In this document: positions 4,802 through 20,001 of the stretch, piece after piece
Numbering within the stretch: position 1 is the stretch's first letter
Layout: each line of letters opens with the position of its first letter
Source of the DNA: Clostridia bacterium
GTDB lineage: Bacteria; Bacillota; Clostridia; Oscillospirales; SIG627
DNA length: 29,085 nt
Reading direction: 5' to 3'
Assembly (NCBI GenBank): GCA_017408325.1
Contig: JAFQUW010000075.1
Coordinates: 1 to 29,085 of the forward strand
Notes under the pieces: generated by a model
What the model saw: only the letters and a program-made list of their open reading frames with translations
Told to the model about the DNA's origin: nothing
The model's database searches: none
Made by a program: the position numbers and the translations under genes

Positions 4802-4829
4802 CAAAATTTCAAAAAGAAAAAGGGTTTGC

Positions 4830-4858
4830 TTGAAAAAAAGGAGGGGATATGTTAAAAT
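4830..4858 (+). promoter_or_regulatory. sigma70/sigmaA promoter for tcdA-pth
   Basis: TTGAAA-17bp-TAAAAT with an extended TG. Confidence 0.7.
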
Positions 4859-4885
4859 ATTTTGTAACTTTTTTGGGAGGGATCT

Positions 4886-5575
4886 ATGGATTTTCTTGCG
4901 CGTTCCCTGCCGCTTCTCGGAAAAGAAGGGCTTGCAACACTCAAAAAAAGCCGCGTGCTCGTTTTGGGGCTCGGCGGCGTCGGTGCCGCCTGCGCCGAGG
5001 CGCTCGTGCGAGGCGGCGTGGGAAGCCTCGTCTTTGCCGACGGCGACGCATATTCCCCGACGAACAAAAACCGCCAGCTTTACGCGACCGACGAAACGCT
5101 CGGAAAAAACAAGGCCCTCGTCGCCGCGCACCGTGCCAAAGAGATCAATCCCGAGATCACGGTCGAGGCGCGTGAGGTCTACTTCAAGGCAGGCGAGGAC
5201 TTTGACCTCGACGGCTTCGACTATATCTGCGACTGCATCGACGACGTGGACGCAAAACTCGACCTCATCTGCCGCGCCTGCGAACAAAAGATCCCGATCA
5301 TCAGCGCAATGGGCGCCGGCGGAAAGCTGGATCCCACACGCTTTCGCGTCGCAGACATCGCAAAGACCCACACCTGTCCGCTGGCCAAAAAGATGCGCGT
5401 CGAACTTCGGCGAAGAGGCATCACACATACGAAGGTCGTCTTCTCCGACGAGATCAGCCGCGCCGTGACGAGCCCCCCTGCCTCCGTCTCCTTCGTGCCG
5501 CCCGTGATGGGCTTTTTGATGGCGGCGGAAGTCGTCCGCACCCTCTGTGAAACCACCGAAACCGAGGAAGAATGA
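4886..5575 (+). CDS. tcdA: tRNA threonylcarbamoyladenosine dehydratase (ThiF family)
   Basis: VLGLGGVG, TNKNRQL, DCIDD, MGAGGKLDP, CPLAKKMR, VVFSDE, SFVP. GGGAGG RBS. Confidence 0.88.
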   Translation: MDFLARSLPLLGKEGLATLKKSRVLVLGLGGVGAACAEALVRGGVGSLVFADGDAYSPTNKNRQLYATDETLGKNKALVAAHRAKEINPEITVEAREVYFKAGEDFDLDGFDYICDCIDDVDAKLDLICRACEQKIPIISAMGAGGKLDPTRFRVADIAKTHTCPLAKKMRVELRRRGITHTKVVFSDEISRAVTSPPASVSFVPPVMGFLMAAEVVRTLCETTETEEE

Positions 5576-8030: not shown

Positions 8031-9074
8031 ATGAAACGCATTCTTTGTCTGTGTCTGCTTTTAGCGGTGCTGTTTTCCGCCGCGTCGTGTGAGCCGATCG
8101 GCTTGCCGCGCCCCGCGCCGAACTACTCCGCCTCCGAAGATCTTGCCCAAAACGTCGAGGCGGATTCGATCCGTTACTATTGTTCCCCGACCACGAAGTA
8201 CAACGTGTTCATCCTGGAGCGCGACGGTAAATTCGGCGTCATTGACGGTTTTGGGAAAGTGCTCGTCGAGCCGACGTGGGACTGCGCGACTCTGACGCAC
8301 ACCGCGAAAGACGAAAGCGAATGGGGCAAGGCCGAAGTGAAAGTGCTCCTCTCCAACCGAACCGAAAACGGCTATCCCCGGATGGAAGGAATGTTCGTGG
8401 AAGCCGACGGAACGCTCACCGAAGGAACGTCCGGCGGCTGGGACTACGGCAGAAGCCTCGTCTATTGGGACTCAAACGAAAAAACGCCGCTTCTCTTTTC
8501 CTCGGGCGACGGCATCACCGAGTTTCGCTCCACGGACGTGAAAGACTACCGAAGACCGTTTCGCAGTTCGGCTTACTTCTTCGCCGCCGCCGATACCCGG
8601 GAAAAAGTGGTCGCCGTGCAGGCGATCTCCGACTATGAATTGGTGGAAGAAAACGGCGGTGTCCATCTGTACGTTACGGAAGAAAAGGACGGAAAGTACG
8701 CCCTGCTCTCTCTGGAGACGGGCAAGCTGCTCACCGACTTCGTCTACGAGGACTACGATCGCACGGGCGAGGTCAACGACGTGATCGCCATGAAGAAAAA
8801 CGGCTCCTGGGGCTACGTCGATTCGGCGGGGCGCGAGATCTCCGAATTCTACTATCTGCCCTGCTACACCGGGGAAAACGGTGAGGACGGCTTCTACCCC
8901 AACTGCAACGGCTACATCGCCGTCTGCGAGGGTGAACTGTACGGCCTCATCGAGGAACAAGAAGGTCGCGTTGCGGAGGCGTCGCAGTTTGCGGACATCA
9001 CCATGCCCACCCCCCACGGACGCTACTGGGCAAAAGACCTCACCGGAAAGTGGTCCGCCCACAAACTCGGATAA
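8031..9074 (+). CDS. Putative lipoprotein with WG-repeat-like beta motifs
   Basis: Signal peptide ending AASC (Cys20); KFGVIDGFGKVL, KYALLSLETGKLL, KKNGSWGYVDSAG, LYGLIEE. AGGAG RBS. Confidence 0.7.
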   Translation: MKRILCLCLLLAVLFSAASCEPIGLPRPAPNYSASEDLAQNVEADSIRYYCSPTTKYNVFILERDGKFGVIDGFGKVLVEPTWDCATLTHTAKDESEWGKAEVKVLLSNRTENGYPRMEGMFVEADGTLTEGTSGGWDYGRSLVYWDSNEKTPLLFSSGDGITEFRSTDVKDYRRPFRSSAYFFAAADTREKVVAVQAISDYELVEENGGVHLYVTEEKDGKYALLSLETGKLLTDFVYEDYDRTGEVNDVIAMKKNGSWGYVDSAGREISEFYYLPCYTGENGEDGFYPNCNGYIAVCEGELYGLIEEQEGRVAEASQFADITMPTPHGRYWAKDLTGKWSAHKLG

Positions 9075-9101
9075 CGTTCCCCAGCTTCCCTTACCGATCA
9101 C

Positions 9102-9129
9102 AAAAAGCACCGCAGTTGCGGTTCTTTTT
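9102..9129 (+). terminator. Intrinsic terminator after the lipoprotein genes
   Basis: AAAAAGCACCGC-AGTT-GCGGTTCTTTTT hairpin with a T tract. Confidence 0.6.
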
Positions 9130-9188
9130 GGCTTTATCCGCGGTCTTTTTCAAGAGAAAAAAGCCCGGCAGAAGCATCACTCCGTATC

Positions 9189-9307
9189 CCGCAAAACGCC
9201 CCCACGGTATACGGGCGCGTTTTGTGCCGAAGGCTTCCCCTTTGCCCGTCTCGCCTCGGCTTTCTTCTTTGTTTCTTTCTTCTTTCTCCCGAAAGAAGAA
9301 AGAAAAG
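9189..9307. repeat. Left copy of a composite palindromic (REP/BIME-like) repeat
   Basis: 9189-9230 matches 10869-10910 at 41/42 nt, followed by CTCGGCTTT and the hairpin TTTCTTTCTTCTTTC-TCCC-GAAAGAAGAAAGAAA. Confidence 0.8.
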
Positions 9308-9334
9308 CCCCCCGTCGCTCAAGGCAACGAGGGG
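9300..9334 (-). terminator. Intrinsic terminator of the XRE gene
   Basis: Minus strand CCCCTCGTTGC-CTTGA-GCGACGGGGGG (with G-U pairs) followed by CTTTTCTT. Confidence 0.55.
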
Positions 9335-9351
9335 TCGTGAATGCAAATGCT

Positions 9352-9558
9352 TTAGTTTTTCTTGTCGGTCCTGCCAAGGATATAGTCCGTAGTTACTTTA
9401 TGAAAATCGGCAAGCTTCAAGAGAATTTCCGTTGGGATATCCAACACGCCGCGCTCATAATCGGAATAAACGCGCTGACTGCAGGAAAGTGCGTGTCCCA
9501 TCTGTGCCTGTGTCAAATCTCGATCTTCGCGCAGATCACGAATTCGTTTGTAAACCAT
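9352..9558 (-). CDS. Small XRE-family helix-turn-helix transcriptional regulator (68 aa)
   Basis: RIRDLREDRDLTQAQMG...SQRVYSDYERG...LLKLADFHKVTTDYILG, a canonical HTH_3 pattern. AGGTGG RBS. Confidence 0.92.
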   Translation of the reverse strand: MVYKRIRDLREDRDLTQAQMGHALSCSQRVYSDYERGVLDIPTEILLKLADFHKVTTDYILGRTDKKN

Positions 9559-9613
9559 GAAACCACCTATACCATATCATCTGCCAAAAACAACTGTGGT
9601 ATACAGTATAGCG

Positions 9614-9659
9614 TAGCGGAAAATCCGCTATTGACTTTTAGTGTAAAATCCGCTAAAGT
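9614..9659 (+). promoter_or_regulatory. sigma70-type promoter overlapped by two 17-bp palindromic operators
   Basis: O1 TAGCGGA-AAA-TCCGCTA (9614-9630, perfect 7-bp arms); -35 TTGACT (9631-9636); O2 TAGTGTA-AAA-TCCGCTA (9639-9655); -10 TAAAGT (9654-9659); 17-bp spacer. Confidence 0.75.
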
Positions 9660-9684
9660 ATAAATGCTCCCCTGTTTCAGGGTC

Positions 9685-9924
9685 GGCGAACGCCTGACGC
9701 GACAAAAGCGTGAAACGGCAAACGCCCGGTGCGGCGAACGCTTAACTCGGCGAACGCGTGAAACGGCAAACGCCCGATGCGGCGAACGCTTAACTCGGCG
9801 AACGCGTGAAACGGCAAACGCCCGATGTGGCGAACGCTTAACTCGGCGAACGCGTGAAACGGCAAACGCCCGGTGCGGCGAACGTTTGACTCGACGAAAG
9901 CCTAACTTGACGAACCCGCGACAA
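9685..9924. repeat. Tandem array of 15 x 16-bp units in a 48-bp (A-B-C) higher-order repeat
   Basis: A GGCGAACGCTTAACTC, B GGCGAACGCGTGAAAC, C GGCAAACGCCCG(A/G)TGC. Four full triplets start at 9685, 9733, 9781 and 9829; three degenerate units follow from 9877. Confidence 0.95.
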
Positions 9925-9945
9925 GAGGGGCAAATTTTTGAGCGT

Positions 9946-9968
9946 GTTTAGCGGATTTTCCGCTAAAC
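9946..9968. promoter_or_regulatory. Distal operator O3 / 23-bp palindrome
   Basis: GTTTAGCGGA-TTT-TCCGCTAAAC; its core 9949-9965 is the exact reverse complement of O1. Confidence 0.75.
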
Positions 9969-9995
9969 GCAACAACCGATGATACAGAGAAAGGC

Positions 9996-10082
9996 ATGGC
10001 TGTTATGAGCACTTTGATTAAAACGATCGAGGCTCTCGCAAACGTTCGAAAAGCACCTGCCGGTATCTGTGATGAGGAGTAA
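9996..10082 (+). CDS. Possible 28-aa small ORF (MAVMSTLIKTIEALANVRKAPAGICDEE)
   Basis: Open frame after AGAAAGG (better spaced for the second ATG at 10005); ends 6 nt before the next gene. No homology evidence. Confidence 0.2.
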   Translation: MAVMSTLIKTIEALANVRKAPAGICDEE

Positions 10083-10088
10083 ATCATT

Positions 10089-10817
10089 ATGAAAAAGCCC
10101 CTTTCTTTTGTTCTTGCTGTCTGTGTTTTTGTCGCGTTTTTTGCCTCAGTCTTTTGTCTGTCGGCTCACGAAGCCGTAAAAAACAACGGGATCTATTATT
10201 ACATCGTTTCATACGGCAAAGCAACCATTACCGATACAGTGAACGAAGCTCTCGGCGATTATGTTGTTCCGTCTACCATCGGGGGATATCCGGTAATCGC
10301 CATAAAGGATAACGTTTTCTACAACGATCTACGACTAACGGCAATTGTCATTTCAAATAATGTAACCACCATCGGAAAGAACGCTTTTTCCGGCTGTGTT
10401 CAACTGTCTTCAGCTACAATAGGAGAAGACGTCACGACCATTGGGGAAGGCGCTTTTTACGGTTGTTGCAACTTAACATCGATTGTTCTCCCCGCAAGCG
10501 TATCAGACATTGGCAAAAAGGCGTTTAGCAAGTGTGCCGAAAATTTTATCATTTATGGGTATTACAACAGCTTTGCCAGAACCTATGCAGAAGCCAACGG
10601 CTATCAATTTGAGGCACTCGACAAACTGATCGGAGACCTTGACCAGAGTGGAGACGTCTCTATCAACGACATAACGCTTTTAGCTAAATATATTTCCGGT
10701 TGGGACACGGAAATTGATGCCGCCTGGGCTGACTGCGATGGAGACACAAAAATCTCGCTCAACGATTTAACCTTTTTGACTCGATCTGTCGCCGGCTGGG
10801 CTGTCTCTTCCGAATAA
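10089..10817 (+). CDS. Secreted BspA-type leucine-rich repeat protein with a C-terminal type I dockerin
   Basis: Signal peptide; VTTIGKNAFSGC, VTTIGEGAFYGC, VSDIGKKAFSKC repeats; duplicated Ca-loop GDLDQSGDVSINDITLLAKYI...ADCDGDTKISLNDLTFLTRSV. Confidence 0.88.
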   Translation: MKKPLSFVLAVCVFVAFFASVFCLSAHEAVKNNGIYYYIVSYGKATITDTVNEALGDYVVPSTIGGYPVIAIKDNVFYNDLRLTAIVISNNVTTIGKNAFSGCVQLSSATIGEDVTTIGEGAFYGCCNLTSIVLPASVSDIGKKAFSKCAENFIIYGYYNSFARTYAEANGYQFEALDKLIGDLDQSGDVSINDITLLAKYISGWDTEIDAAWADCDGDTKISLNDLTFLTRSVAGWAVSSE

Positions 10818-10868
10818 TCAAATTTCACAAGCTGTCATACAAGCGTATAAACATCGAACAAACATAAG

Positions 10869-11202
10869 CCGCAAAACGCGCCCACGGTATACGGGCGCGT
10901 TTTGTGCCGATGGCCCGCTCTTCCTGTTCCCCGCTCGGCTTTTCTTTTGCTCCTTTCTTTTCTCGAAAAGAAGGGGAAAACCAAAACCGAGCCCGCGGTT
11001 TGGGCTCGGTTTTCTGCTGACGTAGTCTATTTCTTTTTCTCGCCTCGGCTTTTCTTTTGCTCCTTTTCTTTTCTCGAAAAGAAAAGGAGAGAAAAACCGC
11101 AAACGGAGCCCGTCGTTTGGGCTCCGGTTGTGTGTGACGTTGCCGTTTGCTTTTTTTAGTATAGCTTTTCTTTGCTTCTTTCTTTTCGCGAAAAGAAAGA
11201 AG
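10869..11202. repeat. Right cluster of composite palindromic (REP/BIME-like) repeats
   Basis: 42-bp hairpin copy (10869-10910), two ~110-bp units (CTCGGCTTTT at 10934 and 11044) each with a TTCTTTTC-nn-GAAAAGAA hairpin and a GAGCCC/GGGCTC hairpin, then a third TTCTTTTC hairpin (11175-11202). Confidence 0.85.
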
Positions 11203-11209
11203 GAAAAAA

Positions 11210-11238
11210 TTGACTCTTACTTTTGTGTGTGTTATAAT
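11210..11238 (+). promoter_or_regulatory. Strong sigma70/sigmaA promoter for the dnaD-dnaC-metG-tatD run
   Basis: TTGACT-17bp-TATAAT with an extended TG. Confidence 0.85.
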
Positions 11239-11293
11239 AACTATGATTTTGGATCGAGGCTTTTTTCAAAGCCCGAGAAACGATGGAGGACGC

Positions 11294-12217
11294 ATGCGCT
11301 ACGAGATTTCTGACAAACTGTTCGGCGACTCGTTTGCCGTCCCCCGAGTCTGCGAGGACTACCTTGCGGAGGCGGGGGAGGTCGAACTGCGCGTGCTGTT
11401 GTTTGCCGCGAGTCGCGCCTCGTTTGAAGACGGAGAACTGGTGGCGGCTCTTTCGGATTTCGAGGAGAGCGAAGTGCGTGAGGCACTCGCCTTCTGGCGC
11501 GGCGCGGGGCTTTTTTCCAAGAAGCGCGGCGTGAAAAAGGCGGCGAAACACGAGACGGAGAAACCGACGGAGACCCCCGAGGTAAAGATCGTCTCCTCGC
11601 GCCCGAACTATACGTCTTTTGATCTTGCAAACGCGGTGGAACAACAGCCCGATTTCAAGAGCCTCGTCGACTATGCCGAAGGGCGACTTGAGAAGATGCT
11701 CAACCGCGCGGATCTCTCGCTTTTGTATTCTTTTGTGGACTATCTCGCCTTGCCCGTCGACGTGGTGATGCTCGGCATCGAGGCCTGCGTCAAGGAGGGC
11801 AAGAAGAGCCTGCGCTACATCGAGAAACTGCTCATCGCGCTCGTCGACGACGGGATCACGAGTTACGAGGATGCGGACGCATATTTTGTCCGCCGCGCCG
11901 AATACTTGTCCTATGAAGGACGCGTGCGCACGATGTGCGGTTTCGGGAGCCGTGCGCTCACCGCGGCGGAGAAAAAACTCATCACCGCCTGGAAGGACGA
12001 ACACAAGTATACCGAGGAGGAACTGGTCGCGGCGTATGAAAAGATGATCGCCGCCATCAACAAGCCCTCGATCTCTTATATGAATAAGGTGCTCCACACC
12101 CTGCGCAGTGCCCCTGCCGCGGCGACGGAAGACACCCATAAGACCTACGACACCGAGAGCCGCTTTTCCCGCGCCGTCTCTCGCAAGAAGAAAACGAAAA
12201 CGGAGGAAGCCGAATGA
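11294..12217 (+). CDS. DnaD/DnaB-domain replication protein
   Basis: N-terminal winged-helix-like part (EVREALAFWRGAGL) and DnaD-like domains (EGKKSLRYIEKLLIALVDDGITSYEDA; KPSISYMNKVL). Start reassigned to ATG 11294 after GGAGG; 307 aa. Confidence 0.85.
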   Translation: MRYEISDKLFGDSFAVPRVCEDYLAEAGEVELRVLLFAASRASFEDGELVAALSDFEESEVREALAFWRGAGLFSKKRGVKKAAKHETEKPTETPEVKIVSSRPNYTSFDLANAVEQQPDFKSLVDYAEGRLEKMLNRADLSLLYSFVDYLALPVDVVMLGIEACVKEGKKSLRYIEKLLIALVDDGITSYEDADAYFVRRAEYLSYEGRVRTMCGFGSRALTAAEKKLITAWKDEHKYTEEELVAAYEKMIAAINKPSISYMNKVLHTLRSAPAAATEDTHKTYDTESRFSRAVSRKKKTKTEEAE

Positions 12218-18924: not shown

Positions 18925-20001
18925 TCATTCCGTTTCGGCAACGATGAAAGGCTTGTACTCGCTTTCGAGGAAGTACTTTTCGGCGGCGGAGCCGGGGGCG
19001 ACGTGGATCTTTTGGATCGTGGTGGTGTTTGCGAACTGTTCGTCTCCGATGCTCTTGACGCTCTTGGGATAGTTGACGTCGGTGAGGTTGTCGCAGAAGG
19101 AGAAGGCGCGTGCGCCGACCTCCGTCACACCGTCGCCGAGGCGCACACCCGTCAGCATCGAACAGCCGGAGAAGGCCGCTTCACCGATGCGCGTGACGGA
19201 AGCGGGGATGGAGATGCTGGCGATGTTGGAGCAGCCCGCGAGTGCCCAGTCACCGATCTCGGTGACACCGTTCGGGACGTAGAGGGAGGTGATCGTCTCG
19301 CACAGCGAGAGAGAGGCGATCTTTTTCACGTCGGAGGGGAGAGTCAGAGAGCCGCCCTCGCCCTTGTAGGCGATGAGGATACCGTTTCCGACGATGACAA
19401 ACTCGTCTGTTGCGTCCAGAAGGAACTTCGTCTCGTCAAAGGCATAGGCACCGATGATCTCCACGCCGTCGGAAAGGTCGACCTTTTGAAGCGACTTACA
19501 GTTTGCAAAGGCATAGGAGTCGATCTCGTGCAGGGAATCGGGCAGGCTGATCTCTTCGAGATGTCCGCAGCCGTAGAAGCAGGCTTCGCCGATGCGGCGC
19601 AACGTGTCGGGGAGCTTGACGCTCTCGAGAAGCGTGCAGGAGGAAAAGGCGTTGTCGCCGATCTCCATGACGGGCTTGTCCTCGATCTTGTCGGGAACTT
19701 CGGCGTCCGTGACGGTGCTGTCCGCGCTCGTAATCGCGGCGTAGTCCTCGTAGAGATCGTAGGAAAAGCCGCCGTGCTTTCCCGAGGAGACGAATTTGCT
19801 TTCGGGAAGGGGGACGGTCTTGGGGGCGGAAGATTCCACCTTATCCTCGGTGGAAGGCTTGTCGTCTTCCAGGGGGGTCATTGTGGTCGCGGGGGGCGCG
19901 AGGACGATCCACAGCACGATGCCGACCGCAACGAGAAGGACGGCAGCAAGAATGAGGGACAGACGTACTTTTTTGGAAATCTTACGTTTGACTTTTGCCA
20001 T
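18925..20001 (-). CDS. Membrane-anchored BspA-type leucine-rich repeat protein
   Basis: Basic N-terminus, one TM helix, Pro/Thr linker, repeated IGxxAFxxCxxLxSIxLP units. Confidence 0.88.
   Translation of the reverse strand: MAKVKRKISKKVRLSLILAAVLLVAVGIVLWIVLAPPATTMTPLEDDKPSTEDKVESSAPKTVPLPESKFVSSGKHGGFSYDLYEDYAAITSADSTVTDAEVPDKIEDKPVMEIGDNAFSSCTLLESVKLPDTLRRIGEACFYGCGHLEEISLPDSLHEIDSYAFANCKSLQKVDLSDGVEIIGAYAFDETKFLLDATDEFVIVGNGILIAYKGEGGSLTLPSDVKKIASLSLCETITSLYVPNGVTEIGDWALAGCSNIASISIPASVTRIGEAAFSGCSMLTGVRLGDGVTEVGARAFSFCDNLTDVNYPKSVKSIGDEQFANTTTIQKIHVAPGSAAEKYFLESEYKPFIVAETE

Follow-up and report, generated by a model that had tools for sequence, protein, structure and literature searches.

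The locus described here lies in a 29,085-nucleotide stretch of a Clostridia bacterium genome (GCA_017408325.1, contig JAFQUW010000075.1, positions 1 to 29,085), hereafter the window, where its neighbours are housekeeping genes (pth, DnaD-like, DnaC-like, metG, tatD, gap, pgk, tpi and others). We identified neither phage nor recombinase families in the window, in agreement with the initial annotation of this DNA, which had noted that no prophage was in sight. The locus comprises a short gene of the XRE family, a divergent intergenic region with palindromic sites, a tandem repeat array and a leucine-rich repeat (LRR)-dockerin gene, here termed the cargo. Its features are as follows:

9189-9234, plus strand: left copy of a 46-bp direct repeat (hairpin) of a REP/BIME-like family
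9308-9334, minus strand: terminator-like hairpin 3' of the XRE gene, 11-pair stem with a T-rich tail (consensus scan)
9352-9558, minus strand: putative XRE-family repressor gene, 68 amino acids, helix-turn-helix (HTH) only (Pfam HTH_3), divergent and 55 bp from O1
9605-9610, minus strand: predicted -10 box of the XRE promoter (TATACT), separated from O1 by 3 nt, assigned from orthologous loci
9614-9630: O1 (site A), TAGCGGA-AAA-TCCGCTA, a perfect 7-3-7 palindrome abutting the -35 box of the cargo promoter
9631-9636, plus strand: predicted -35 box TTGACT of the cargo promoter (consensus scan), with a TTGAC core that is close to invariant in 60 loci
9639-9655: O2 (site B), TAGTGTA-AAA-TCCGCTA, 15/17, with two mismatches in this assembly
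9654-9659, plus strand: predicted -10 box TAAAGT of the cargo promoter, after a 17-bp spacer and overlapping the last TA of O2
9670-9682, plus strand: small hairpin CCCTG-TTT-CAGGG, located where the leader is predicted to begin and present in the predicted fold
9684-9898, plus strand: tandem array of 4.5 units of 48 bp, each of three 16-bp subunits, within a leader of ~420 nt
9946-9968: O3 with its GTT/AAC flanks, a 23-bp perfect palindrome ~30 nt before the first downstream start codon
9949-9965: O3 core, an exact reverse complement of O1 that matches the consensus operator and has TTT at its centre
9996-10082, plus strand: 28-codon open reading frame (ORF) between O3 and the cargo gene
10089-10817, plus strand: cargo gene, encoding a signal peptide, BspA-type LRR_5 repeats and a type I dockerin
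10869-10914, plus strand: second (right) copy of the 46-bp direct repeat, with 96% identity to the left one

Re-reading of the sequence bore out the O1, O2 and O3 sequences, coordinates and spacings given in the initial annotation, as well as the divergent 68-amino-acid XRE gene 55 bp from O1. The centres of O1 and O2 are 25 bp apart, those of O2 and O3 310 bp and those of O1 and O3 335 bp. O2 fills the 17-bp spacer of the cargo promoter and overlaps its -10 box. The -35 box of the XRE promoter is weak, and this promoter was not itself called by the consensus scan, which also detected no plus-strand promoter immediately 5' of the LRR gene or at O3.

The XRE protein matches Pfam HTH_3 (PF01381) with 42.2 bits (cut-off 23) over residues 6-60 of its 68 residues. 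We identified no oligomerisation, cooperativity or cleavage domain and no sensor domain in it, and no significant match to any C-protein family. Its nearest solved relative is the N-terminal domain of ImmR of ICEBs1 (PDB 7t8i, E 4.9e-8). The best phage homologues are less than 60% identical, and the O1-O2 region has no match among IMG/VR phage contigs. ImmR is a longer protein that undergoes cleavage by ImmA and governs a mobile element, and none of these features is found at the locus studied here.

The cargo protein is assigned by matches to LRR_5 (E 5.8e-23) and Dockerin_1 (E 5.8e-7). The 28-codon ORF that precedes its gene has no family match, and four of its five strain variants alter the amino acid by our codon reading; it is probably not a conserved gene. 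A 95-codon ORF that runs across the array (9664-9951) was rejected as a gene: it starts at the -10 box, lacks a ribosome-binding site and gives a sub-threshold repeat match.

The initial annotation had proposed a genome scan for TAGCGGA-N3-TCCGCTA. In the whole host assembly (1.05 Mb in 179 contigs, 69% complete), the exact palindrome occurs at O1 and O3 only, where ~4e-4 exact matches would be expected by chance from our composition estimate. Allowing up to two mismatches adds just O2 and two unrelated sites on other contigs. The presence of the motif in the host genome is beyond chance.

A wider search of genome contigs recovered 477 relatives of the XRE protein, from which 80 orthologous loci were retained. 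Sixty of the 80, from different species, share one arrangement upstream of the XRE gene: site A, TTGAC(T/A), two bases and site B; the remaining 20 have no recognisable module of this kind. The hosts are mostly rumen and gut Oscillospiraceae, Ruminococcus and Acutalibacteraceae, and include the cultured Ruminococcus flavefaciens strains FD-1 and YL228. In a DNA search of 60 relatives, the XRE gene with the O1-O2 stretch was likewise found in other genera, with the same layout in seven of eight orthologous loci; in the eighth (G023) the upstream region has been remodelled to a single palindrome without TTGAC.

In the module, the last TA of site B begins the -10 box of the cargo promoter, which reads TAAAAT in 34 and TATAAT in 13 of the 60 loci. 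The consensus also holds a second -10 box on the other strand, 3 nt past site A (TATAAT in 36/60, TATACT in 7/60), so that -10 boxes stand at fixed offsets on either side of a consensus of ~60 bp. Because of this second box, the module appears to be a pair of back-to-back promoters, with the spacer of the cargo promoter occupied by site B and that of the XRE promoter by site A. Most loci have their better palindrome at site B; in this assembly, O2 is the weaker of the two. The centre of the palindrome varies among orthologous operators (AAA, TTT, ATA or AAT).

The half-sites fall into classes across lineages, namely TAGCGGA, TAGCGAA, TACTGCA, TAAGGGA and one TAGCCCA, and each class pairs with its own sequence of the recognition helix and of the loop behind it (such as SQRV..YERGxLD, SQRV..YERGDID, SQQV..YELGQRD and HQTT..YELGNLN), in a correlation that is not absolute. 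The classes probably represent few evolutionary events. Matches to the motif with at most one mismatch are confined to the module pair in five further genomes, among them those of R. flavefaciens FD-1 and YL228, and the TAGCGAA class is likewise local. This joint change of protein and site, together with the local uniqueness of the motif, is what would be expected of a repressor and its operators, and points to binding of the palindromes by the XRE protein. The expectation in the initial annotation that orthologous XRE genes would carry the same palindrome holds for the two-site architecture (60 of 80 loci), with half-sites that vary by class.

Variation between strains was examined in contigs of four metagenome runs from four studies, covering sheep and other animal gut samples. 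The XRE gene has one variant position in its 207 nt. The O1 and O3 cores are invariant in the four runs and positions 9941 and 9969 vary, an invariance that is not significant for a 17-nt site. O2 is polymorphic, with two linked changes (9642 T>C and 9644 T>G): it matches the consensus perfectly in runs X3 and X6, and is weakened in this assembly and in runs X1 and X4. In run X1, several other contigs match positions 9607-9657 only and then diverge. As the ~50-bp module is all that these contigs share, several organisms or loci of that community must carry it.

Given these analyses, we consider it probable that the locus is an autoregulated repressor cassette, in which O1 and O2 serve as operators and O3 is an added third site. 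Most likely, a dimer of the Cro-sized 68-amino-acid protein would bind the 17-bp palindromes. Occupancy of O2 would block the rightward promoter, predicted to be a strong one, and shut off the LRR-dockerin gene, and occupancy of O1 would block the repressor's own leftward promoter, giving negative autoregulation. The predicted outcome is a self-limiting repressor that holds the cargo at a low, buffered level and is not bistable. Repression of the rightward promoter by the XRE protein at O1 and O2, as proposed earlier, thus finds strong comparative support in the 60 of 80 loci with the module, in the joint change of half-site and helix and in a motif that is unique to the locus in six genomes. 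The initial annotation had overlooked that O1 lies in the spacer of the predicted XRE promoter, a position that suggests autoregulation and not a cooperative contribution to O2.

The initial annotation had also read the locus as a phage-like genetic switch, and this reading is not upheld. The locus holds one HTH gene, and the rightward genes are the doubtful 28-codon ORF and the LRR-dockerin gene, so no second regulator is present; the single regulator has 68 amino acids and no cooperativity domain. As there is neither a second regulator nor positive feedback, bistability is not expected. The likeness to the lambdoid Cro/CI systems (lambda, 434, P22) lies in an XRE/Cro-type HTH protein, 17-bp dyad operators ~24-25 bp apart and overlapping divergent promoters. 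In contrast to those systems, the locus has one regulator rather than two antagonists, two adjacent sites rather than three, with neither a prophage nor a cleavable or cooperative C-terminal domain.

Another parallel is C.Kpn2I, a controller (C) protein of a restriction-modification system and a small HTH-only XRE-type protein with palindromes at overlapping divergent promoters and autoregulation (PMC6237814), the last of which is predicted here. Unlike the C proteins, the protein studied here is not accompanied by restriction-modification genes, its gene is divergent from the target, and its two sites lie in the spacers of two back-to-back promoters. RcoLS20 of the Bacillus plasmid pLS20 is also of the XRE type and acts at overlapping divergent promoters, with a promoter unusually far from the first gene it serves and a second operator downstream (PMC4207663), all of which have putative counterparts at this locus. 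However, RcoLS20 is a DNA-looping tetramer opposed by an anti-repressor, whereas the protein here has 68 amino acids without an extra domain and no evident anti-repressor, and is encoded on the chromosome at a locus with no link to conjugation.

O3 and the array are not part of the conserved module. None of the 60 module loci has a site ~300 bp away, and none has a tandem array. The 48-bp array was not found elsewhere in the host genome, in the 60 relatives or in JGI metagenome contigs, and has no match beyond chance level in 400 genomes of the order. O3 and the array thus appear to be a lineage-specific addition in an unusually long leader of ~420 nt; in module loci the cargo start codon is usually 23-130 nt past site B. 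Two module loci (L087 and L092) carry a weaker third site (15/17) at +63, just before the ribosome-binding site of the cargo, which suggests that such sites arise repeatedly. The number of array units seems to differ between strains. One contig of run X4 (sheep gut) joins 9707 to 9852, skipping 144 bp, or exactly three 48-bp units; a separate repeat contig is missing from run X4 but present in the other runs, at 1.6-3.3 times the depth of the flanks. The skip and these depths suggest that the array is a variable-number tandem repeat.

In the autoregulated cassette that we favour, O3 would most likely be bound as an additional site and reinforce repression from its downstream position, either by standing as a roadblock in the path of RNA polymerase or by providing a second clamp. 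A small XRE-type protein, C.Kpn2I, provides a precedent for a downstream block to elongation (PMC6237814). Alternatively, as the initial annotation had suggested, the repressor may bind O1, O2 and O3 cooperatively and loop out the intervening 310-335 bp, giving switch-like control; lambda CI and RcoLS20 would be the models for such control. O3 is an exact consensus site (17/17) of the same specificity as the promoter-proximal site, the 335 bp between O1 and O3 correspond to ~31.9 helical turns and would place both sites on the same face of the DNA, and RcoLS20 needs its second, downstream operator for full repression (PMC4207663). However, RcoLS20 loops as a tetramer (PMC4207663), and 68 amino acids leave no room for a separate oligomerisation domain. 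The absence of a distal site from all 60 orthologous loci indicates that a site at this distance does not belong to the design of the family and leaves the function of O3 without backing from conservation, and the apparent 48-bp steps of the array, of ~4.6 turns each, would shift the phase between the sites. Switch-like control is further disfavoured by the lack of a second regulator and of positive feedback. We regard looping as quite unlikely; a roadblock at O3, which requires no more than a dimer, seems at least as likely as a loop.

O3 might instead not be a DNA operator at all, and could form a leader RNA hairpin that affects mRNA stability or translation, or be a neutral palindromic remnant of a REP/MITE-like repeat. 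If transcribed, O3 with its GTT/AAC flanks forms a 12-pair hairpin in the predicted leader fold. The fold as a whole is not clearly more stable than that of shuffled sequences (z -1.9), and a scan of positions 9000-11300 against Rfam assigned neither the array nor the leader to a credible family; a structured RNA element in the leader was rejected as unsupported by this z value. A remnant would recall two related genomes, in which the palindrome is dispersed. The exact 17-mer occurs 28 times in G023 and 26 times in G035 (another genus of the family), once in G017 and not at all in the other 47 genomes of the family, and with the GTT/AAC flanks included, the 23-bp palindrome has the same counts of 28 and 26 in G023 and G035. 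All dispersed copies are intergenic and mostly sit between convergent genes instead of at promoters: of 24 with a classifiable position, 16 are flanked by convergent and one by divergent genes. Against both forms of this alternative, O3 matches the consensus at 17/17 positions and lies 310 bp from O2, at the locus of the only repressor gene of matching specificity, and the third, weaker sites of L087 and L092 also fall between the module and the cargo ribosome-binding site. Against a remnant in particular, the host genome has no dispersed copies and so no such repeat family. We consider it unlikely, if still worth weighing, that O3 is something other than an operator.

The dispersed palindromes themselves show a pattern that resembles REP/MITE-like repeats and not a regulon. 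In G023, the copies form the centres of imperfect palindromic elements of ~165 bp, whose arms contain small hairpins and heptad repeats, and only one XRE orthologue lies near the dispersed copies in the loci retrieved (L007, L011-L016 and L019-L026 of G023; L006, L017, L018 and L027-L032 of G035). In G035 the palindrome is often paired, with the two copies 42-49 bp apart. It is tempting to speculate that the operator can leave its home promoter, such that a third copy and a variable array would heritably tune the repression of a cellulosome-docked surface protein between strains, and the dispersed copies of G023 and G035 would rewire or titrate the repressor genome-wide; we hold this broader scenario to be unlikely.

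A further alternative derives from the orientation of O1 and O3, which could be the inverted repeats of an invertible promoter, as in fimS and the gut invertons, with a recombinase flipping the 318-bp segment (9631-9948). The repeats are indeed inverted and identical at 17/17 positions, and they flank a segment that bears a promoter. However, each repeat is itself palindromic except for its A/T centre, and this centre varies in orthologues, so that the orientation is uninformative. Moreover, the window encodes no recombinase, no strand-changing joints occur in the contigs of the four runs (contigs of a kind that cannot show rare forms), and O1 is already explained by the conserved module. We consider inversion highly improbable.

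The genes that follow the module at other loci encode mutually unrelated proteins, including YpsA/SLOG, BspA-type LRR_5, DUF6809, zinc-ribbon membrane proteins, a GDSL lipase, a collagen-repeat protein, a PP2C phosphatase and lipoproteins. LRR_5 cargo follows the module in five other loci. Because the cargo genes are unrelated to one another, the unit appears to be a portable regulator/promoter cassette that is common in gut Clostridia. We found no mention of the operator sequence or of DUF6809 in the literature.

The 46-bp direct repeat brackets the cassette of the host genome, and its two copies are members of a family of hairpin repeats that is found many times over in the congeners G001-G003. 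This REP/BIME-like family occupies positions 9189-9307 and 10869-11209, and consists of a GC-rich terminator-like stem with TTTCTTTC/GAAAGAAA palindromes; there are dozens of copies of the hairpins in the congeners, often at contig ends. A target-site duplication cannot be concluded from the 46-bp repeat, as the flanks belong to a multi-copy REP-like family of the genus. Two contig features were also discarded as evidence for excision or an empty site, a joint in run X3 that goes back 1680 and a contig of run X4 that leaves the window at 9234, both of which are explained by the 46-bp repeat and the end of the stretch. The cassette was not found in the three congeners searched, whose assemblies are incomplete and do not keep synteny; the congeners have a different region 5' of the DnaD-like gene, which precludes an empty-site comparison.

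Overall, the locus most likely represents a real but ordinary repressor-controlled promoter, to which an unusual third site and a probably variable array have been added. An XRE repressor with palindromic operators is textbook biology. What the comparison adds is the definition of a 60-bp repressor/promoter unit, together with operator specificities predicted in several uncultured rumen and gut lineages of Clostridia. The unit could serve as a compact, orthogonal set of repressible promoters for anaerobes that are hard to engineer, and it marks accessory genes, many of them for surface or secreted proteins, that are probably kept silent. Its occurrence in cultured R. flavefaciens strains places it where it can be tested, and the third site with the variable array offers a natural experiment on auxiliary operators.

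Several minor features of the host genome may be recorded. A weak leftward promoter-like site (ATAACA, 16 bp, TATCAT) is found on the minus strand at 9979-10006; if this promoter is real, O3 would lie just past its start, and an antisense transcript would run through the array toward the XRE gene. A second BspA-type LRR_5 gene occurs in the window on the minus strand (18925-20001), with neither a dockerin match nor the module. A paralogous XRE gene with 56% identity, on contig C62 (~4824-5170), has its own palindrome (TAGTAAA-N4-TTTACTA) in the same back-to-back layout, and a more distant XRE paralogue is encoded on contig C40.
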